This document shows positions 3,355 through 31,903 of a stretch of 64,000 nt of DNA, in pieces; within the stretch, counting starts at the first letter, position 1, and every line of letters begins with the position of its first letter. The stretch is from an uncultured delta proteobacterium. GTDB lineage: Bacteria; Desulfobacterota; Syntrophobacteria; BM002. Made by a program: the position numbers and the translations under genes. The notes under the pieces are model-generated. The model was not told the origin of the DNA. It searched no databases and worked only from the letters and a program-made list of their open reading frames with translations. The stretch spans positions 96,001 through 160,000 of the forward strand of contig CAVQGX010000030.1 in NCBI GenBank assembly GCA_963712115.1, read 5' to 3'.

Positions 3355-3740
3355 CTCATAGTAAAGAAGTTGATTAGTCAAATCGTCAAATCGTCGAATA
3401 GTCAATTCGTTCAAATCGTTGAAGCCGTTCAAATCGTTTAAGTCGTTAAAGCCGTTGAAATCGTTGAAACCGTTCAGGTGGTTAATTAGTTAATTAGTCG
3501 ATTAGTCAATTCGTTCAAATCGTTAATTCGTCATTGAGGCCATTCATAACCATTTGACTATTCGACAAATTGACGATTTGACTTGCTGCCCTCTGACCGC
3601 TGACCTCCGACTTCTGACTTCTGTTTTCCTTCGTCTGTCTTCTACCTTTTACAACAAATGACAGCGCAGCGTAGTGACCTAATGACGCCGAAGGCAAATG
3701 ACTGTTCTGTCTTCTGCCCCCGTCTCGCTCTTCTCGCATT
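3352..3740. repeat. Composite intergenic short-repeat array (8-mer AATTAGTC, 9-mer ATCGTTCAA, 7-mer CTCTGAC, GTCTCGC) with a 63-bp dispersed core
   Basis: Read directly; 3467-3624 is the reverse complement of 8776-8933; 3641-3703 is the reverse complement of 11256-11318 and 15489-15551. Confidence 0.9.
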
Positions 3741-5666: not shown

Positions 5667-5800
5667 TCACGAGAAGCTAAGGCTCAATATAAGTTTATTT
5701 AATTCTAGCAAACCTGGTCCTCCGGGTCAGGTCAGTTCTCAATGGCTTCGCCGGTAAAGATGGCGAGGGCTTTTGGAGTTTTGGAGTACTAGAGGGATAG

Positions 5801-5932
5801 AAATTCCAAATCACAAATCACAAATTTCAAATAAATCACAATAACCAAAATTCAAAATTCCAAACCTGTTTCGGTCATTTGGTATTGGAATTTAAGATTT
5901 GTTTGTAATTTGGTGCTTGGAGTTTGGGATTT
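5801..5932. repeat. Gene-less AAATYCC/GGRATTT inverted arm pair nested in a GGAGTACT/ACTCCA pair
   Basis: 65-nt left arm and 66-nt right arm are colinear with the arms flanking the gene at 25529-25894; outer arms at about 5773-5790 and 5945-5960. Confidence 0.85.
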
Positions 5933-6162
5933 CAGTGACTTCACCACTCCATTACTCCAGCATACCGCGGCAAGAGCGAAAGACCTTGGCTCCCCTTCGG
6001 GGGATGGCAAGGGCCCGGATTCTTTATTTTACTCTTGCTCTTTAAGGTCTTCTGGGGATAAATGTAGAAGGACGCATAGCGCTTTAGGCACCCTAACAAA
6101 ATACTAATTCTTGCTACGCGATCTTTCGGGATTTGCGCTTGCCCTGCTGGGACAGAGGTCAA

Positions 6163-8718: not shown

Positions 8719-8985
8719 CGCAGAGCGAATAGCGCTCTGCGCGGCGGGACGGGGATAGAGGTCAGAGGGCGGAGGACAGAAGTCAGAAGTCGGAGATCAG
8801 CGGTCAGAGGGCAGCAAGTCAAATCGTCAATTTGTCGAATAGTCAAATGGTTATGAATGGCCTCAATGACGAATTAACGATTTGAACGAATTGACTAATC
8901 GACTAATTAACTAATTAACCACCTGAACGGTTTGAACGATTCAACCACCTGAACGGTTTGAAGGCTTTGAAAGACTGCAACGGAT
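8716..8985. repeat. Composite intergenic short-repeat array
   Basis: GTCAGAG, GTCAAATC, GACTAATT and TTGAACGAT units; 8776-8933 is an inverted copy of 3467-3624. Confidence 0.9.
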
Positions 8986-25248: not shown

Positions 25249-25443
25249 TAAATCCCGGATGTATAGAAAATAATTCGAATTTTTTGAATCGATTTTTCCA
25301 CAATATTCACGAACCACCATTTACAAATTAAAGGTTTCTACGGCTTCCTGTGAGCTATGAGCTTTCAGCTGTCAGCTAACTTGACGCCTTCAACATTTTG
25401 AACGACTTGAACGCTTTGAACGACTTGCCCCCCTCTTTCCCCC

Positions 25444-25473
25444 TTGACTTTCACCTAACTTTCACCCTATAAT
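25444..25473 (+). promoter_or_regulatory. Sigma70 promoter of the SOS cassette with an overlapping direct-repeat operator
   Basis: TTGACT-N18-TATAAT; ACTTTCACC at 25447-25455 and 25458-25466. Confidence 0.7.
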
Positions 25474-25488
25474 TCAAACATAGTTTGT

Positions 25489-25960
25489 AAATCCGAAATC
25501 CCAAGCACGAAATCCTAAACAAATTCAAATGTCCAAAGCACAAAATTCAAAACAATACGATTTGGAAGATCGCACTCTGGCTTTTGCTAAAGATGTACGC
25601 AGTTTCGTGAAAAAACTGCCGAAAACTTTAGCCAATATCGAAGACGGCAGACAGCTGATCAAAGCCCCCGGCTCCGTTGGTGCCAATTACATTGAAGCTA
25701 ATGAAGCTTTAAGCAAAAAAGATTTCATTATGAGAATTAAGATATGTCGCAAGGAGGGGAAAGAAAGCCGATATTGGCTGAGGTTGATTAGCACGGAAGA
25801 CATTAGAGAACTTGAAGAAGAAAGACGAGATTTGGAAAGAGAAGCCAGCGAGCTCACCAGTATTTTTGGTTCCATCCTGACTAAAAGCTCATGATGTTTT
25901 GGTGATTTGAAATTGGGATTTGGGATTTGTTTAGGATTTAGGATTTAGATATTGGGATTT
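25489..25960 (+). mobile_element. Four-helix-bundle cassette 1 (AAATCCY arms)
   Basis: Left arm 25489-25553 and right arm 25895-25960 are in-register inverted heptamer arrays; mobility is inferred. Confidence 0.6.
25529..25894 (+). CDS. Four helix bundle protein (23S rRNA IVP / bAvd-like)
   Basis: DLEDRT..F, QLIKAPGSVGANYIEA, SKKDF, ESRYWLRL. Confidence 0.9.
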   Translation: MSKAQNSKQYDLEDRTLAFAKDVRSFVKKLPKTLANIEDGRQLIKAPGSVGANYIEANEALSKKDFIMRIKICRKEGKESRYWLRLISTEDIRELEEERRDLEREASELTSIFGSILTKSS

Positions 25961-26038
25961 TCCCTAATCACCGTTTACCGTTCACCATTTACGAATTGAC
26001 TAATCAACGAATTGACCAATTGACTCAGAGGTATACCC

Positions 26039-26641
26039 ATGCAACTCACAAAACAGCAAACCCGAGTCTATAGCTATCTGGAGACCTATCTTCGCCGGAA
26101 AGGTAGGCCGCCATCTTACCAAGAAATCCAGGATTACTTTGGCTTTGGTTCCCTAAACTCAGTGGTCAAGCACCTCAAGCAGCTTGAACGCAAGGGCTAT
26201 CTGGAGAGTCCCTGGGGTAATCAGAAACGGGCTTTTCGCCTTCTACCTCTGCGAACAACTGCGGCTACCATACCCTTTCTCGGGAGGGTAGCTGCCGGCG
26301 CTCCCATCGAGGCTGTAGATATACCCGAAGCGGTGGAAGTGCCCGAAAGCCTGCTTGCCGGCGGTAACAACTTCGCCCTTCAAGTGCAAGGAGAGTCGAT
26401 GATCGATGAGGGCATTCGCGACGGGGATGTACTCATAATCCGAAAACAGGACCATGCTGACAATGGTCAGACCGTGGTGGCACAGATCGAAGGGGAGGCC
26501 ACAATAAAGAAGTTTTACCAGCGGGACGGTAGGGTGGAACTACGACCGGCGAATGAGGAACTGAAACCTCTCGTGGTTCCCGCCGAAAAGGTAGAAATCA
26601 TCGGCGTGGTTGTAGGGCTAGTCCGGCATTATAAGAGATAA
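26039..26641 (+). CDS. lexA: LexA repressor
   Basis: LT..Q, PPSYQEI winged HTH; VAAG cleavage site; GESM serine and TIKK lysine. Confidence 0.95.
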   Translation: MQLTKQQTRVYSYLETYLRRKGRPPSYQEIQDYFGFGSLNSVVKHLKQLERKGYLESPWGNQKRAFRLLPLRTTAATIPFLGRVAAGAPIEAVDIPEAVEVPESLLAGGNNFALQVQGESMIDEGIRDGDVLIIRKQDHADNGQTVVAQIEGEATIKKFYQRDGRVELRPANEELKPLVVPAEKVEIIGVVVGLVRHYKR

Positions 26642-26657
26642 CGCAAAGCGTTTTCCG

Positions 26658-27200
26658 GCGAGACGAGCGAGACGGGAGGTCGAGCGAGACGGGGATTAAA
26701 TATCAAAATGATTACGCAGGTAATTACATGAGAAAGGGGCGCCATTATGAGTAAAAGCAAAAAGGTTAGTCGGTTCGAAGATTTGGAAGTTTGGCAGGAA
26801 GGATGTGATCTCGCTGTTCAAATTTACAAGCTGTCGAGAGAAGGAAAACTTGCAAGGGATTATGGTCTCAGGGATCAGATGACTAAATCCGCAGTTTCTA
26901 TTCCCTCAAACATAGCCGAGGGTAAGGAGCGTGAGACGGCACCAGAACTTATCCGCTACCTTTACATTGCCAAAGGCTCTACTGGTGAGTTGCAAACACA
27001 AATATACATAGCTCAGAGAATCGGCTACGTGGACGAAGGAACATCCTACAACCTTATTCAGCAAACCAAAGTTTTGTCCAAAAAACTAGGCAGCTTCATT
27101 CAATACCTTAAAAGAAACGTTGAGCTAGCGAGAAAGTGAGACAAGATAAAAAGGTCTGATCATTACTCGTCTCGCCCGTCTCGCTCGTCTCGCGTCTCGC
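26658..27200 (+). mobile_element. Four-helix-bundle cassette 2 (GCGAGACGG arms)
   Basis: gcgagacgagcgagacgggaggtcgagcgagacggg ... ctcgtctcgcccgtctcgctcgtctcgcgtctcgc; mobility is inferred. Confidence 0.6.
26747..27139 (+). CDS. Four helix bundle protein (23S rRNA IVP / bAvd-like)
   Basis: FEDLEVWQ, DQMTKSAVSIPSNIAEG, AKGSTGELQTQ, GY. Confidence 0.92.
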   Translation: MSKSKKVSRFEDLEVWQEGCDLAVQIYKLSREGKLARDYGLRDQMTKSAVSIPSNIAEGKERETAPELIRYLYIAKGSTGELQTQIYIAQRIGYVDEGTSYNLIQQTKVLSKKLGSFIQYLKRNVELARK

Positions 27201-27210
27201 GAAAATTGCT

Positions 27211-28446
27211 ATGCTTCGCGAAAAGATGATAAGCGAAATCTTACACTTAGATATCCGCGACTTCTGCATTGCCCTGGAACGGCAGCGACGGCCTGATCTG
27301 AGGGAATGGCCGGTAGTCGTCGCACCGGGGCAGGGGCGAACGGTGGTCCAGGCTGTCTCTCCCGAAGCCCGAGAGGAAGGCATACATCCGGGTATGGTCG
27401 TGGCTCGGGCCCGACAGTATTGCCGCCGTCTTACTGTGCTGCCTCCGGATTTCTCGCTCTATCGGCAAGCCCAGGAAAAGATAGTGACCGCTTTAGGAAG
27501 GTTTTCGCCCTTGGTGGAGCCGGCCTCCTGGGGACATTTCTTTGTTGATGCCACCGGGACTCGTCGCCTCTGGGGGGGGTTGCTCGATAGGGCTGATCTG
27601 ATGCGGCGATTGGTGGATACAGAATTTCAACTGGATACTGCTGTGGGTGTGGCCAGCAACAAACTGGTGAGCCGGGTTGCCTCCCGGGTGGTGAAGGCTC
27701 GGGAATTGTGTGATGTTTTTCCTGGACTGGAGGCTTCTTTCCTCTCACCTCTGGCGGTAAATGTTCTTCCCGGGGTGGGGGAAGTGACCACCGCCAGATT
27801 GCTAGCCGAACTTAATCTTCAAACCGCGGGAGAATTAGCCCACGTCTCCCCAATGCTTTTGAGTCAGATATTTGGAGCCGTGGGGCAAAGGCTTCGGAGC
27901 ATGGCTTTGGGAGAAGATCCCTCACCGGTGCTAACACCGAAAGCCGTGCCCATGTTGCGGGAAGAGGTTCAACTGCCGGAAGATGATAATCACCGGCATA
28001 GGTTGTTGGGTTATCTCTATGGGCTCGTTGAAGCACTGGGCCGCCGGTTGCGTTCCCAAAATCGCTGTCCCGGTGAACTGGCCCTTACAGCGACCTATGC
28101 AGACGGTGTTCAGGCGAGGGCGCGGGAGCGACTTGCTGTTGCCGGCTGTGAATTTCATTTGGACAGTTTTCTATATGAGGCAGCGTTACGGCTTTTCACT
28201 CAGGCTGTTCAGCGACGTATACGCTTAAGACGTTTGTCTCTAAACGTCGCCCATCTCCAGACCCCTTTCGGCCAACTGGCCTTATTCCCCTGGGACGACC
28301 CCGGCCGGGGCAAAGAGGTCAAGCTACTACGGGCTATCGACCAAGTCCGCCACCGTTTCGGTAACGAGGTGCTTTACTATGGACGCACGGAGGTCAGACG
28401 ACGGAGGACAGAGATCAGACGTCAGAGGTCAGAGGACAGAACTTAA
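27211..28446 (+). CDS. imuB: Y-family polymerase homolog, ImuB-like (catalytic acidic residues degenerate)
   Basis: HLDIRDF instead of DMDAF; SWGHFFVD instead of SIDEAFLD; QLALF clamp motif; upstream of dnaE2; last ~20 aa are encoded by a repeat arm. Confidence 0.8.
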   Translation: MLREKMISEILHLDIRDFCIALERQRRPDLREWPVVVAPGQGRTVVQAVSPEAREEGIHPGMVVARARQYCRRLTVLPPDFSLYRQAQEKIVTALGRFSPLVEPASWGHFFVDATGTRRLWGGLLDRADLMRRLVDTEFQLDTAVGVASNKLVSRVASRVVKARELCDVFPGLEASFLSPLAVNVLPGVGEVTTARLLAELNLQTAGELAHVSPMLLSQIFGAVGQRLRSMALGEDPSPVLTPKAVPMLREEVQLPEDDNHRHRLLGYLYGLVEALGRRLRSQNRCPGELALTATYADGVQARARERLAVAGCEFHLDSFLYEAALRLFTQAVQRRIRLRRLSLNVAHLQTPFGQLALFPWDDPGRGKEVKLLRAIDQVRHRFGNEVLYYGRTEVRRRRTEIRRQRSEDRT

Positions 28447-28906
28447 GGGGTGACCAAAAATGCGCATTAATTCTGCAAAAGAGCTGAAGGTCTATCAAGA
28501 AGCTTACAGCTTGGCGATGGAGATTTTTGAAATCAGTAAGCAATGGCCACCCGAAGAGAAGTATTCTCTCATAGATCAGGTCAGACGATCATCCCGCTCA
28601 GTCTGTACAAATTTGCGTGAGGCCTGGTCGAAGAGGAGATATAAAGCACATTTCGTCAGCAAATTAACTGATTCCGATGGTGAAAATAGTGAGACTGATA
28701 CCTGGTTGGATTTTGCAAAAGATTGCGGATACGTGGAAAAAAGTGATCACACTCGACTGACGGAGAGATGTACGCGTGTCGGAAAGATGCTTGGGTCTAT
28801 GCTCAACAACCCTACACCGTTTTTAAGACGCTGACTTCTGATCTCCGATCTCCGATTTCTTATTTGCTGACCTCTGACCTCCGACTTCTGACCTCTGTGA
28901 TAGACG
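28389..28906 (+). mobile_element. Four-helix-bundle cassette 3 (GTCAGAG arms)
   Basis: ggaggtcagacgacggaggacagagatcagacgtcagaggtcagaggacaga ... ctgacttctgatctccgatctccga..ctgacctctgacctccgacttctgacctctg; mobility is inferred. Confidence 0.6.
28460..28834 (+). CDS. Four helix bundle protein (23S rRNA IVP / bAvd-like)
   Basis: ELKVYQ, EEKYSLIDQVRRSSRSVCTNLREAW, ETDTWLDFAKDCGY. Confidence 0.92.
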   Translation: MRINSAKELKVYQEAYSLAMEIFEISKQWPPEEKYSLIDQVRRSSRSVCTNLREAWSKRRYKAHFVSKLTDSDGENSETDTWLDFAKDCGYVEKSDHTRLTERCTRVGKMLGSMLNNPTPFLRR

Positions 28907-28933
28907 ATTTTAACGGCTCGGGACCGGAAGCCA

Positions 28934-31903
28934 ATGTTTATTCATCTCCACACTCACTCCTGTTACTCGTTGATGCGCGGCGCCAGTCAGCTGGAAGCAC
29001 TGGTCACAGCAGCGCGCCGGCGCGGTATGACCCATCTGGCCATCACTGATACCAATGGCTTCTATGGTCTCCCCAATTTTCTTGAAATAGCCAGAAAACA
29101 TAAAATCTCTCCCATTGTGGGAGTTCAGGTAACCGCCCGGGACGGAGAAGCGGTACTGCTGGCCAGGACCCCTGAAGCCTATCCGTACCTGAGCGAACTG
29201 GTAAGTTGTCGACATCTAGAGGATACTTTTTCCCTGACTTCAGCTCTGGCTTCCGGTCTTCCCGGCTTGGCTGTGCTTAGTTCTGATTTGGAGCTGCTCT
29301 CAAGGCTACAAGGGTGTGCCGAGCTCTATGTGGAAATACGTCCTGGTGCAGAAGGGGAGGGGCCTTTAAGATTTGCCCGGGAACGCCAGTTACCCAGAGT
29401 GGCCACCAATGCAGTCTACTTCGCCGATCCGGAAGGCTATTCCTTGCACCGATTGCTGCGCGCCATTGATTTGAACACCACCCTTACCAATCTACCCGAG
29501 GATGAAGTGGTCCACCCGGGACAGTGGTTAAAATCTACCGGACAAATGGCAGTCCACTTTCCCCATTGCCCAGAGGCTATGGCTGAAGCTATTCACCTTG
29601 CTCATCGCTGCCACACGGAGTGGAACTTCAGTGGCCAGATCTTTCCTCACTACCGGGATCAGGAGCGGGATCACTTTCAACTCTTACGACAAAAATGTTT
29701 GGAAGGAGTGAACTGGCGCTACGGTGAGATGAATCCGGCGGTGGCCGAGCGTCTGGAAGAAGAGCTTTCCCTTATTCGGGACAAAGGTTTCACCGACTAT
29801 TTCTTAATCGTAGCAGACATTGTCCAGGATGCACCAATAACCTGTGGACGGGGCAGTGCTGCCGCAAGTCTGGTGAGCTATCTTCTCGGCATTACCCACG
29901 TTGATCCCATCCGCCACCAGCTTTTCTTTGGCCGATTTCTCAGTCCCAATCGGCGGGACTTTCCCGACATTGACGTGGATTTCCCCTGGGATGAGCGGGA
30001 TGAAATACTCGATTCTGTGGAACGTGCCTATGGCAGTGAACGAACCGCCATGGTGGCCAATCACGTAGGTTTTCGCAGCAGGGCTGCAGTTCGGGAGGTG
30101 GCCAAGGTATATGGAATAACACCGGCGGAAATCAAAGAGGTAACCAGGCGGCTTTCCTTTTTCGGTCGCCCCACAAAGATCCCGGAGCGAATGGCCCGCC
30201 ACCCCAAATTCAGGAATTTACACCTGGAACCACCATGGCCTGAAATTTTCCAGTTAGCCGGTCGGTTGGAAGGTATTCCCCGCCACCTTTCCGTGCATTG
30301 TGGCGGCACTATTATTGTTCCAGATCAGGTTCAGCGCTATGTGCCTGTGCAGCGGGCCACTAAAGGGGTGCGAGTAATTCAGTGGGAAAAGGATCAAGCC
30401 GAGGCGGCCGGTCTGGTAAAGATCGATCTATTGGGTAATCGCTCTTTAGCAGTGATTCGTGACACCCTTGCTGCTATTCGCCACAACACCGGGAGAAATA
30501 TCTCTTATGCCCAGCTCAACCCTGTTGATAATCCTGCCACCCAGGAGTTGATTGCCAGGGGTGAGACCATGGGTGTTTTTTACGTGGAATCACCTGCCAT
30601 ACGCCAGCTACAGCAAATGACCGGGCGGGGTGACTACGAGCATTTGGTCATTCACTCATCGATTATTCGCCCGGCAGCCAACCGCTACATTTTGGAATAT
30701 GTGCGACGCCTCAAAGGTGGTTCATATAGGAGCCTACATCCGGTTCTGGATGAGGTGCTCGCCGAGAACTATGGCATCATGGTGTACCAGGAGGACGTCT
30801 CCCAGATTGCCATGAAACTGGCGGGGTTCGATCCTGCCGAGGCTGACACTTTGCGCAAGATTTTGTCCTGGAAAAGTAAAGAACGACTGGCCGACTATCG
30901 CACCCATTTTTTTGAAGGCAGCCGCCAAAGAGGGGTGAGCCGCGAGGTAAGCGAAACTGTTTGGGAAATGATCGAATCTTTCGGGGGCTACAGCTTCTGC
31001 AAGCCTCATTCGGCCAGCTATGCCCTGGTGAGCTTCAAGTCAGCTTATCTCAAGGTACATTATCCTGCCGAGTTCATGGCTGCGGTGATTTCCAATGGCG
31101 GGGGGTATTATTCCACTTTTGCCTATGTTTCCGAGGCCAGGCGGATGGGGCTACAGGTTCTGGGGCCGGATGTCAACGGTAGCGCCATCGAATACACAGG
31201 CAAAGATCGAACTTTGCGGGTGGGATTGATGCAACTTCAAGGATTTCCACGTGATGTTGCCGAGACCATCGTCAGCGAACGGCTTGAGAATGGGCTTTTT
31301 AACTCCCTGGACGATTTTTGTCTGAGAGTTAATCTTGAACCTGCCGCCGCCCGAATTTTAGTGCAAAGTGGGGCTTTAGACAGCATCTCCGGCGGGCTAA
31401 ATCGGCCGCAAATGCTCTGGCGGTTTTATGGTGAACCGAAAGATCAGGCCGTTGGCCAATCCTTTTCCCTTGTGCCCGTTGCCATCGATCCATCCCAATG
31501 GCCCCAGGTTGAAGACTATGATCGCTCTACCAAACTGTCCCATGAACGGGAGACCCTGGGTTTCATACTTTCAGTTCACCCTTTGAGGGTTTATGGTCGA
31601 AAGATTGCTGCCAGTGGGCGCAAAATCGTGCCGGCCAGTGAGCTCTCCAGATACGTGGGCCGAAGAGTAACCCTTGCAGCATGGTCCATAACCGGAAAAG
31701 AGGTAGTTACTAAAAAGGGCGACCCCATGGAGTTTGTCTCTTTCGAGGATGAGACCGCCATCTTCGAGACCACCTTCTTCCCCAAAGCTTACCAACGCTT
31801 CTGCCAGATACTGGATATGAACCGCGCCTATCTCCTCACCGGTCTAGTTCAAGAACAGTACGACACGGTGAGTGTTAATGTGGAGCAGATCCAGCGATTG
31901 TAG
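28934..31903 (+). CDS. dnaE2: Error-prone DNA polymerase III alpha (DnaE2/ImuC)
   Basis: PHP HLHTHS, GRGSAAAS, PDIDVDF, SVHCGG, KIDLLG, YSFCKPHS; short 989 aa form in lexA-imuB context. Confidence 0.9.
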   Translation: MFIHLHTHSCYSLMRGASQLEALVTAARRRGMTHLAITDTNGFYGLPNFLEIARKHKISPIVGVQVTARDGEAVLLARTPEAYPYLSELVSCRHLEDTFSLTSALASGLPGLAVLSSDLELLSRLQGCAELYVEIRPGAEGEGPLRFARERQLPRVATNAVYFADPEGYSLHRLLRAIDLNTTLTNLPEDEVVHPGQWLKSTGQMAVHFPHCPEAMAEAIHLAHRCHTEWNFSGQIFPHYRDQERDHFQLLRQKCLEGVNWRYGEMNPAVAERLEEELSLIRDKGFTDYFLIVADIVQDAPITCGRGSAAASLVSYLLGITHVDPIRHQLFFGRFLSPNRRDFPDIDVDFPWDERDEILDSVERAYGSERTAMVANHVGFRSRAAVREVAKVYGITPAEIKEVTRRLSFFGRPTKIPERMARHPKFRNLHLEPPWPEIFQLAGRLEGIPRHLSVHCGGTIIVPDQVQRYVPVQRATKGVRVIQWEKDQAEAAGLVKIDLLGNRSLAVIRDTLAAIRHNTGRNISYAQLNPVDNPATQELIARGETMGVFYVESPAIRQLQQMTGRGDYEHLVIHSSIIRPAANRYILEYVRRLKGGSYRSLHPVLDEVLAENYGIMVYQEDVSQIAMKLAGFDPAEADTLRKILSWKSKERLADYRTHFFEGSRQRGVSREVSETVWEMIESFGGYSFCKPHSASYALVSFKSAYLKVHYPAEFMAAVISNGGGYYSTFAYVSEARRMGLQVLGPDVNGSAIEYTGKDRTLRVGLMQLQGFPRDVAETIVSERLENGLFNSLDDFCLRVNLEPAAARILVQSGALDSISGGLNRPQMLWRFYGEPKDQAVGQSFSLVPVAIDPSQWPQVEDYDRSTKLSHERETLGFILSVHPLRVYGRKIAASGRKIVPASELSRYVGRRVTLAAWSITGKEVVTKKGDPMEFVSFEDETAIFETTFFPKAYQRFCQILDMNRAYLLTGLVQEQYDTVSVNVEQIQRL

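Follow-up and report, generated by a model that had tools for sequence, protein, structure and literature searches.

A gene-less hairpin element suggests an origin for many puzzling seven-base repeat arrays in bacterial genomes

Results and discussion

A hairpin element with the arms of a gene cassette

The DNA analyzed here is a stretch of 64,000 nucleotides (the window) from the genome of an uncultured delta proteobacterium, corresponding to positions 96001 to 160000 of contig C30 in an assembly of 4.9 Mb and 70 contigs (completeness, 94.4%; contamination, 5.99%). At positions 5801 to 5932, the window harbors a hairpin-shaped element of 132 nt, which is composed of two inverted arms of ∼65 nt. 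Arms of the same design occur a second time in the window, where they bracket a gene in a unit that we refer to as cassette 1. This gene (25529 to 25894) encodes a protein of 121 amino acids, which matched the PF05635 profile, described as "23S rRNA intervening sequence protein" (44.5 bits; cutoff, 33.8; E = 2e-11), and the TIGR02436 four-helix-bundle (4HB) profile (64.8 bits; cutoff, 24; E = 7e-18), and whose nearest solved structure is PDB 2rld (E = 1e-11). No Rfam family reached its threshold in the 64-kb window, rRNA included, and the window elements sit between protein-coding genes. Sub-threshold Rfam matches of plant and animal microRNA-like type around the element were discarded, as they are expected for any long hairpin.

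In an initial annotation made from the letters alone, the element had been described as an empty cassette exactly colinear with cassette 1. The letters at 5801 to 5932 and at the two arms of cassette 1 (25489 to 25553 and 25895 to 25960) are as given there, and the ungapped alignments hold: the left arms are identical at 44 of 65 positions, versus 36 for the best other shift within ±10, and the right arms at 49 of 66, versus 32. All other shifts scored lower, so that the two loci are colinear in one register only, with the 4-nt phase break (AAAT/AAAC) at the same place. The arms are separated by one base (5866) in the element versus 341 nt (25554 to 25894) in cassette 1. Paired with each other without gaps, they form 41 Watson-Crick and 7 G-T pairs out of 65 in the element, and 42 and 4, respectively, in cassette 1. 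For the region from 5770 to 5960, a fold of −60.9 kcal/mol (z = −6.0) was predicted on the plus strand and of −53.7 kcal/mol (z = −5.5) on the minus strand. As also noted before, the element is itself nested in an inverted pair of another type (TGGAG/GGAGTACT; outer arms, 5774 to 5794 and 5938 to 5959).

The element belongs to a subfamily, here called A-type, with ∼18 copies in the genome, which match it at 80 to 88%; nesting inside a TGGAG-type pair is found in 13 of 18. Gene-less A-type copies keep the start codon and first codons (∼8) of the gene inside the left arm (...CAATGACCAAAATTCAAAATTCCAAAC; ...CAATGACC...), with the ATG mutated to ATA in the element at 5801 to 5932. Its nearest gene-bearing relative is a locus of a Desulfobacterales MAG (metagenome-assembled genome; locus L041), the arms of which match those of the element at 56 of 63 and 46 of 53 positions without gaps. 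In a tree of 76 proteins that was built by a quick method, the L041 protein clustered with those of further loci bearing A-type arms. Judged by these alignments, cassette 1 is a cousin, not the parent, of the element. No consistent direct repeat flanks the A-type copies. All coordinates are collected in Table 1.

Table 1. Coordinates of the features discussed, in window numbering
Feature	Position	Strand	Basis
∼322-nt layered composite repeat carrying the element	5701..6022	.	absent from orthologous spacer of congener G002
Left half of outer TGGAG-type 8-mer hairpin	5772..5800	+	inverted-repeat listing; nesting in 13/18 A-type copies
Left arm, A-type: 4 heptamers, 4-nt break AAAT, inner block with vestigial start ATA 5841-5843 and ∼8 codons	5801..5865	+	56/63 to L041 left arm
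Hairpin apex, single base between arms	5866	.	sequence reading, fold
Right arm of gene-less element	5867..5932	+	49/66 to 25895-25960; 46/53 to L041
Right half of outer TGGAG-type hairpin	5933..5960	+	inverted-repeat listing; nesting in 13/18 A-type copies
Sigma-70-like promoter TTGACT-18-TATAAT, 11/12 matches, 15 nt upstream of cassette 1	25444..25473	+	conserved in G002
Left arm of cassette 1, gene ATG (25529) inside	25489..25553	+	sequence reading, ungapped alignment
4HB protein gene, 121 aa, PF05635/TIGR02436	25529..25894	+	profile matches; relatives of 61-79% identity across many phyla
Right arm of cassette 1, directly 3' of stop codon	25895..25960	+	sequence reading, ungapped alignment
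Cassette 2: PF05635 gene 26747-27139 between inverted GCGAGACGN 9-mer arrays	26658..27201	+	between lexA and imuB; array z 9.6; absent from G002 spacer
Cassette 3: PF05635 gene 28460-28834 between inverted CAGAGGT 7-mer arrays	28390..28897	+	between imuB and dnaE2; array z 11.1; conserved in G002

Arm geometry is conserved throughout the genome

Scanning the genome with profiles built from 20 arm pairs revealed 221 arms, 211 of which cover at least 50 of the 66 model positions (median length, 65 nt; interquartile range, 64 to 66). First-pass profiles from two sequences had found both arms in just 8 of 80 foreign loci and were replaced by fixed-coordinate extraction and these 20-seed profiles. 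Altogether, 196 arms form 98 facing pairs, with one back-to-back adjacency and no adjacency of the same polarity. Among the arms that were parsed, the outer block before the break measured exactly 28 nt (four heptamers) in 20 of 24 on the left and in 19 of 24 on the right; 8 of 32 elements were left unparsed by the regular expression used. Free variation of length and phase-break position, by which the colinearity would be a coincidence of low complexity, was thus not found, since the length of the 221 arms is narrowly distributed and the outer block of the parsed arms is mostly 28 nt long. Over the 98 pairs, length, heptamer count, and break position are kept, which supports the initial view of the arms as elements of defined geometry rather than random microsatellites. 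Identical stretches around repeat elements were observed in the contig pairs C28/C47, C55/C70, C43/C70, and C48/C67; these may be assembly duplicates or bin contamination, so that copy counts may be inflated by a few.

That the arms are microsatellite-like heptamer tracts produced by chance or slippage is hardly credible. It is true that intergenic DNA of this genome is crowded with short tandem blocks (3,473 without overlap, including 1,997 of period 7; modal copy number, 4), and that a few arm copies are off by about one heptamer. However, register-specific alignment, tightly bounded arm length, and the presence of such arms in other phyla (see below) already contradict this explanation. In addition, conservation extends to features that are not repeats, namely the start codon, the phase break, and odd heptamers whose place is fixed, and 98 facing pairs stand against a single back-to-back adjacency. 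Blocks of period 7 to 9 number 2,915 (modal copy number, 4), and those with the same unit within 150 nt of each other are paired in inverted orientation in 212 cases versus 20 direct ones.

Only cassette 1, i.e., 1 of the 98 facing pairs, contains a gene, resulting in a ratio of gene-less to gene-bearing pairs of 97:1. The gap between paired arms was ≤5 nt in 16 pairs, 5 to 15 nt in 6, 15 to 30 nt in 45, 30 to 60 nt in 22, 60 to 100 nt in 8, and 342 nt in cassette 1. Inner arm ends are sharp (..CAAAAC, loop, GTTTTG..), and the loops consist of 1 to 98 nt of unrelated sequence, or of the gene. The loops were also considered as gene remnants, an idea that was dropped: blastn-short matches were confined to parts of the arms that had been included with the loops.

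Gene and arms occur together in many phyla

Relatives of the cassette-1 protein are encoded by at least 514 of 599 candidate stretches from a collection of species-representative genomes, and the best 80 of them (61 to 79% identical) served as the set of foreign loci. Their hosts, mostly MAGs, are labeled Planctomycetota, Thermodesulfobacteriota, Patescibacteria groups, Chlorobiota, Bacteroidota, Verrucomicrobiota, Chloroflexota, Nitrospirota, and others. For comparison, ProRS from the window shares 58 to 62% identity with its Planctomycetota matches versus 95% with an uncultured "Deltaproteobacteria"/Syntrophobacterales-like MAG. On the tree of 76 proteins, 22 phylum labels required 34 changes (minimum, 21; shuffled mean, 38.7), and the cassette-1 protein was sister to nine Planctomycetota proteins; the tree, built by a quick method with SH-aLRT support only, is poorly resolved, with 40 of 73 inner branches open.

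The shared 5' arm consists of four AAAYNCK heptamers, AAAC, and then AAATTCAAATG..CAAAAC, and the 3' arm is its mirror image. This geometry is visible in most of 79 foreign loci; a strict parse demanding four heptamers in both arms was passed by 42, and 58 of the 79 have arms complementary at 38 or more positions. At position 7 of the heptamers, both arms share one choice of G or T, and this choice tracks protein clades. Furthermore, the gene was co-oriented with its upstream neighbor in 67 of 76 foreign loci and with its downstream neighbor in 69 of 76; both neighbors were co-oriented in 58 of 72 loci and both opposed in none of the 72. Cassettes sit, for instance, between the genes for the large and small subunits of aconitase, after that for a V-type ATPase B subunit, and between those for isopropylmalate dehydrogenase and an HMGL-like protein; one of a different 4HB family lies between accB and accC in Xanthomonas. 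Eight Planctomycetota loci (L001, L003, L008, L010, L013, L020, L021, and L023) apparently occupy one and the same spacer, after an aconitase-family large-subunit gene, a placement that was verified with Pfam for L023 and judged by similar flanks for the others. The recurrence of this spacer in MAGs of Pirellulales and Phycisphaerae implies that the cassette was retained vertically for a long time or that one site was used repeatedly.

The association of gene and arrays extends beyond this arm family. All 13 PF05635 loci of the genome under study are flanked by inverted tandem repeats of ∼10 different units (z = 5.2 to 18.5), as are 22 of 30 PF05635 loci in five genomes of other phyla. Among control open reading frames (ORFs) of this repeat-rich genome, such flanks were found for 6.6% of the small ones (n = 197) and 3.0% of the large ones (n = 199). 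A 4HB gene on a Nostoc plasmid is flanked by (AATTCAA)x4 and (TTTTGAA)x4, the single PF05635 genes of Xanthomonas arboricola and Luteimonas sp. R10 each lie between inverted arrays of the GGGAATC type, and in Moorena (6 PF05635 matches in the genome) 4 of 5 inspected 4HB loci have heptamer arrays of their own. Each 4HB clade has its own repeat unit. Four exact tandem GGGAATC copies (L199-L278) were also observed in Xanthomonadales, Gemmatimonadaceae, Moorena and other cyanobacteria, Acidobacteriota, MAGs of Elusimicrobia, and one Thermoplasmata MAG; from its spread among these lineages, the GGGAATC heptamer family is therefore cross-phylum, like the AAAT family. A link between PF05635 genes and flanking tandem-repeat arms was not found in the open-access PMC and bioRxiv literature, with the supplements of PMC2700814 and PMC4692102 lying outside the scope of that search.

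These data bear on the possibility that the arrays are host regulatory sites, which bind nucleoid proteins of the integration host factor (IHF)/HU type or global regulators, with the 4HB genes merely lying in between. Arrays of this kind are intergenic and often situated inside operons, and for the 24, 21, and 8 pairs of 7/8-mer "global regulator sites" of Geobacter metallireducens, binding of IHF/HU is suggested in the accessible part of the source (PMC2700814). Nonetheless, we regard this explanation as very unlikely: the same association of arms and gene from Patescibacteria to Planctomycetota is hard to square with a host-specific factor, repeat units differ between 4HB clades, and congeners differ at orthologous spacers.

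Turnover of cassettes and composite repeats among congeners

In G002, a congener genome on one contig, the cassette-1 site has the same outer junctions and outer arm parts and contains a gene-less remnant, in which ∼70 nt, including a small hairpin that belongs to another family, take the place of the gene and inner arms. Of the other two cassettes, G002 has cassette 3 but not cassette 2. The number of PF05635 genes per genome ranged from 1 to 14 in 18 genomes of the family, and copies of the element were present in 17 of 17 congeners searched.

The element at 5801 to 5932 resides in a layered composite repeat. G002 lacks the window's positions 5701 to 6022, and the flanks abut, while the orthologous spacer of other congeners has quite different repeat blocks. 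TTTATTT is found at both composite junctions (5694 to 5700 and 6023 to 6029); a target duplication is not established by this, because the composite usually has the similar CTTTAYTT as its right end. The genome has ∼20 copies, e.g., at C64:7809 and C49:23240; the pattern gave 21 hits, of which one lies inside a gene. Of the copy centers, 3 hold little or nothing, 3 have TGGAG arms around a short loop, 7 combine TGGAG arms and an A-type element, 5 contain an A-type element interrupted by a hairpin of the CACCTGA type, and 2 contain one of the AATCTGC type. From these contents it follows that newer hairpins lie at the centers of older ones. Composite copies measure ∼150 to 330 nt, have ends such as AACCTGGTCC..CCAGGTCA and ..CCTGGATTCTTTA, and are host to several hairpin families. 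A minimal copy adjoins one of the four Y1 (IS200/RAYT-type) transposase genes of the genome.

Contigs from sediment metagenomes, which carry information only for the regions they cover, had a depth of 850 to 1200 in bins of the arms versus 20 to 30 in the gene interior (30- to 50-fold), and included direct joints of left arm to right arm that skip 357 to 388 nt. Another joint, from 25297 to 25983 (18 other letters in between; sides of 35 to 43), was present in two DNA runs and one RNA run and suggests, as a hint only, relatives without the whole spacer content.

As read from these alignments, the gene was evidently lost in situ between retained arm ends, congeners differ in the presence or absence of cassettes, and elements are nested in hairpin centers. 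The earlier proposal that gene-less copies are non-autonomous derivatives or excision scars holds in substance, given the retained start codons, the 97:1 ratio, and the congener's remnant at the cassette-1 junctions, with excision as a putative process.

A related explanation is that arm pairs are stable landing sites for exchangeable cargo, with the 4HB gene homing into, and being lost from, preexisting pairs. It would account for the sharp inner ends around either a gene or 1 to 98 nt of unrelated sequence, for the G002 site with its outer arm parts kept and other sequence inside, and for new hairpin families at the centers of older ones. We consider it quite unlikely, however, as the start and first codons of the gene belong to the arm and are kept in gene-less copies, gene and arms travel jointly across phyla into unrelated spacers, and arm type tracks protein clade.

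Arms resemble recognition arrays rather than a selected stem

Arm-pair statistics were computed by script, in place of RNAalifold or a covariance model. In the 58 foreign loci with the more complementary arms, mismatches comprised 187 G-U, 188 A-C, and 711 transversions, equal to the expectation for random mismatches. Within the genome under study, the G-U and A-C numbers were 56 and 37 in closely related A copies and 45 and 47 in divergent copies. A left heptamer matched its true right partner at 4.55 of 7 positions, versus 4.61 for the other right heptamers (51 loci), and the arms of 66 oriented gene-less elements matched their own partner at 38.8 of 66 columns, versus 41.1 ± 0.42 for arms of other elements. 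Compensatory changes and substitution bias, which the initial annotation had put forward as checks, thus yielded neither compensation nor an excess of G-U. The observation behind it, that length and register are conserved while some heptamer positions vary, can be refined accordingly: the variable positions change without compensation in the partner arm. What is conserved in the arms is the AA..C. skeleton of the unit, the number of units, the break, the inner ends, and a lineage-wide G or T at position 7.

Repeated recognition sites are a known property of transposon ends with several binding sites. The conservation pattern of the arms is most likely that of inverted, repeated sites for putative binding, not that of a helix kept by compensatory change, as far as this can be read from sequence.

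We also weighed an RNA-level module, in which the arms would pair in the operon transcript and RNase III would cut the stem, releasing or silencing the 4HB mRNA, while gene-less copies would act as processing or insulating hairpins. Several observations fit: the gene is sense in 58 of 72 loci with both neighbors scored and opposed to both in none; cassette 1 is preceded by a promoter-like site and followed by lexA; the predicted fold is strong (z of about −6); and the start codon lies inside the left arm. Contigs from RNA libraries cover 4HB genes, although such libraries may hold DNA and the contigs reveal neither transcription nor ends nor strand. Moreover, terminal repeats of ORF-bearing intervening sequences (IVS) in 23S rRNA form a stem cut by RNase III, according to the accessible text of PMC4990558. 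We nevertheless judge this module unlikely. The G-U mismatches do not exceed A-C (187 versus 188; 45 versus 47 in the genome's divergent copies), complementarity between the arms is not register-specific, own arms are no more complementary than foreign ones, both strands fold nearly equally well, and gene-less copies occur in either orientation. The sense orientation of the gene is equally explained by its need for a host promoter.

A proposed family of one-gene cassettes with gene-less derivatives

On balance, we favor, with moderate confidence, the reading of the element at 5801 to 5932 as a gene-less, non-autonomous member of a family of horizontally mobile, IVS-like one-gene cassettes, whose arms would be putative recognition arrays and whose gene-less copies would be MITE-like derivatives (MITE, miniature inverted-repeat transposable element). 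The full unit consists of a PF05635 4HB gene of ∼120 amino acids, bracketed by two inverted arms of ∼65 nt, with the start codon inside the left arm. Each arm is a fixed array of degenerate heptamers, i.e., four units, a 4-nt break, and about four more units, and would mainly serve as an array of recognition sites, like multi-site transposon ends, rather than as a base-paired stem under selection. The arms would be read by the cassette's own 4HB oligomer, and gene-less copies would be maintained or moved in trans. The cassettes may be the same kind of element as the ORF-bearing IVS at helix tips of 23S rRNA.

Several points weigh against this proposal. The cassette encodes no enzyme, as the 120-residue helical bundle is without a known recombinase or nuclease fold; movement would therefore need a host or trans factor. 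Binding of the arms by the protein is something that we infer from sequence. A search of 50,697 phage records gave no close relative, and plasmid records yielded just 4HB genes of ≤42.5% identity, so that there is no known vector. No target-site duplication was detected at 42 gene-bearing loci (longest direct match, 3.79 versus 3.64 ± 0.15 in permuted pairs), and flanks resembling a host hairpin around gene-bearing copies were not significant. By blastn-short, loops of gene-less copies contain no recognizable remnant of the ORF interior. Gene-less copies are without orientation bias (30 sense, 33 antisense, and 18 ambiguous), which fits inert relics equally well; the remaining pairs were classed as divergent (10), far from any ORF (5), or at contig ends (2), and an earlier ratio of 8 sense to 1 antisense in a small sample of the divergent subfamily vanished with all 98 pairs. 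The small yet consistent deficit in complementarity of own versus foreign arms might reflect units specific for the left or right arm, or selection against perfect long palindromes. With ∼70% complementarity and a strong predicted fold, the arms would also be compatible with a structural role. Finally, binning errors in MAGs could inflate the apparent spread across phyla.

Among known systems, ORF-bearing IVS in 23S rRNA come closest (the type of Leptospira and Coxiella, with the "S23p" ORF). In the accessible part of PMC4990558, an IVS is described as an ORF between terminal inverted repeats able to form a stem, which is cut by RNase III; it replaces the tip of an existing hairpin, is sporadically distributed, and is presumed to be horizontally transferred, and a role of its ORF in mobility appears there as an old, untested idea. 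The cassettes share the ORF family PF05635 and have inverted repeats at their ends with the potential to pair into a stem, whether or not an ORF of this family lies in between. Replacement of a hairpin tip, a sporadic distribution, and presumed horizontal transfer are further points in common. They differ in that they reside in spacers of protein-coding operons rather than in rRNA helix 9, 25, or 45, in that phased arrays of 7- to 9-nt units (∼65 nt, fixed break, ∼70% complementary) take the place of a near-perfect 28-bp stem, and in that gene-less copies outnumber the gene-bearing one by 97:1.

Bacterial MITEs, such as Correia/NEMIS and ERIC, are small, non-coding, multi-copy intergenic elements that have inverted ends, can form hairpins when transcribed, and derive from a longer coding relative by losing its interior. 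The element at 5801 to 5932 resembles them in its size of 132 nt, lack of coding capacity, terminal inverted repeats, and 98 pairs in the genome. Coding relatives likewise exist (cassette 1 and L041), but their product is not a known transposase. Further differences are the long periodic arrays at the ends, insertions at the centers of other hairpin repeats, and the failure to detect a target-site duplication.

Tandem arrays of 7- to 8-mers with about four or five units, intergenic, often in convergent pairs, and inside operons, have been catalogued in Xanthomonas and Geobacter. For the GGGAATC repeats of Xanthomonas, the accessible part of PMC4692102 gives 70 to 75 convergent pairs of unknown function and states no association with mobile elements. 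The Geobacter sites were introduced above. Unlike our analysis, neither source, in its accessible part, draws a connection to PF05635 genes.

Cyanobacterial short tandemly repeated repetitive (STRR) sequences are heptamer repeats reportedly described by Mazel and colleagues in 1990, and Vioque in 1997 is said to have placed one inside helix P12 of the RNase P RNA. They resemble the present arrays in being heptamers in tandem, situated in intergenic DNA and at the apex of a helix in structural RNA, and differ in host phylum, in repeat units, and in usually being described as direct arrays. A published link between STRR sequences and 4HB genes was not found in the open-access PMC and bioRxiv literature.

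Other systems are more distant. PF05635 is said to resemble Avd of diversity-generating retroelements (accessible part of PMC10053308), and the cassette-3 protein matched NF033474 (DivGenRetAVD) weakly, below the cutoff (E = 1e-7); the cassettes, however, have no pair of template and variable repeats. Retro-mobility via a resident reverse transcriptase was ruled out, as PF00078 had no match in the genome, which is 94.4% complete. Repetitive extragenic palindromes (REPs), G+C-rich palindromes of 20 to 40 nt in the accessible text of PMC3733652, and their mosaic elements (BIMEs), with their Y1-type REP-associated tyrosine transposases (RAYTs), are similar in being abundant intergenic palindromes, and this genome has four Y1_Tnp genes; REPs are nevertheless not 65-nt periodic arms. 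Integron cassettes have one attC each and an integrase/attI platform, whereas here the gene has an arm on either side and the cassettes are dispersed over operons unrelated to each other. CRISPR arrays have repeats of 25 to 40 nt and unique spacers, versus contiguous 7-nt units in inverted arms.

More broadly, the element at 5801 to 5932 suggests a source for many of the puzzling arrays of seven-base repeats known from bacterial genomes. It is possible, although less likely than not, that PF05635 genes with family-specific inverted arms constitute pan-bacterial mobile cassettes, whose sole product is a small, non-enzymatic, repeat-binding oligomer, and that these cassettes with their gene-less derivatives gave rise to the IVS of 23S rRNA, STRR-like arrays, the Xanthomonas GGGAATC repeats, the paired sites of Geobacter, and thousands of heptamer blocks, inserting preferentially at hairpin tips. 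PF05635/TIGR02436 is a very large family whose function is not known, and the paired heptamer arrays listed for several genomes have lacked an explanation. With own arrays for each gene and swarming gene-less copies, both puzzles can be addressed by one testable hypothesis, namely that the protein binds its own repeats. If this reading is true, cassettes would be tolerable inside operons and structural RNAs because of insertion at hairpin tips, and may show how such RNAs and operons tolerate insertions in general. Cassette insertion may also explain PF05635 genes inside cas loci and housekeeping operons. For annotation, inverted 7- to 9-mer arrays around a helical protein of ∼120 amino acids would be marked as an inserted cassette, not as a regulatory site or CRISPR-like array, and the cassettes offer natural pairs of protein and repeat with differing specificities.

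Neighboring cassettes and further repeat blocks in the window

Downstream of cassette 1 lies lexA, the first gene of an SOS-type operon with imuB (coding for a Y-family polymerase) and dnaE2 (window positions 25444 to 31903), which is interleaved with three different PF05635 cassettes (Table 1). Most other PF05635 genes of the genome (contigs C46, C30, C18, C3, C52, C59, and C14) share a conserved AAGGGGC(A/G)CC-like motif, which follows the left array and ends 3 to 10 nt ahead of the ATG; the AAAT family has no such motif, and its start lies inside the arm.

Two spacers 5 kb apart (3377 to 3623 and 8753 to 8971) share a series of blocks in mirror order and opposite orientation, i.e., 9-mers, 8-mers, a hairpin of ∼75 nt, and CAGAGGT 7-mers, and bracket several genes, including the locus of the element at 5801 to 5932. 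These mirrored spacers may be a nested set of arms around a multi-gene segment or the halves of a split composite.

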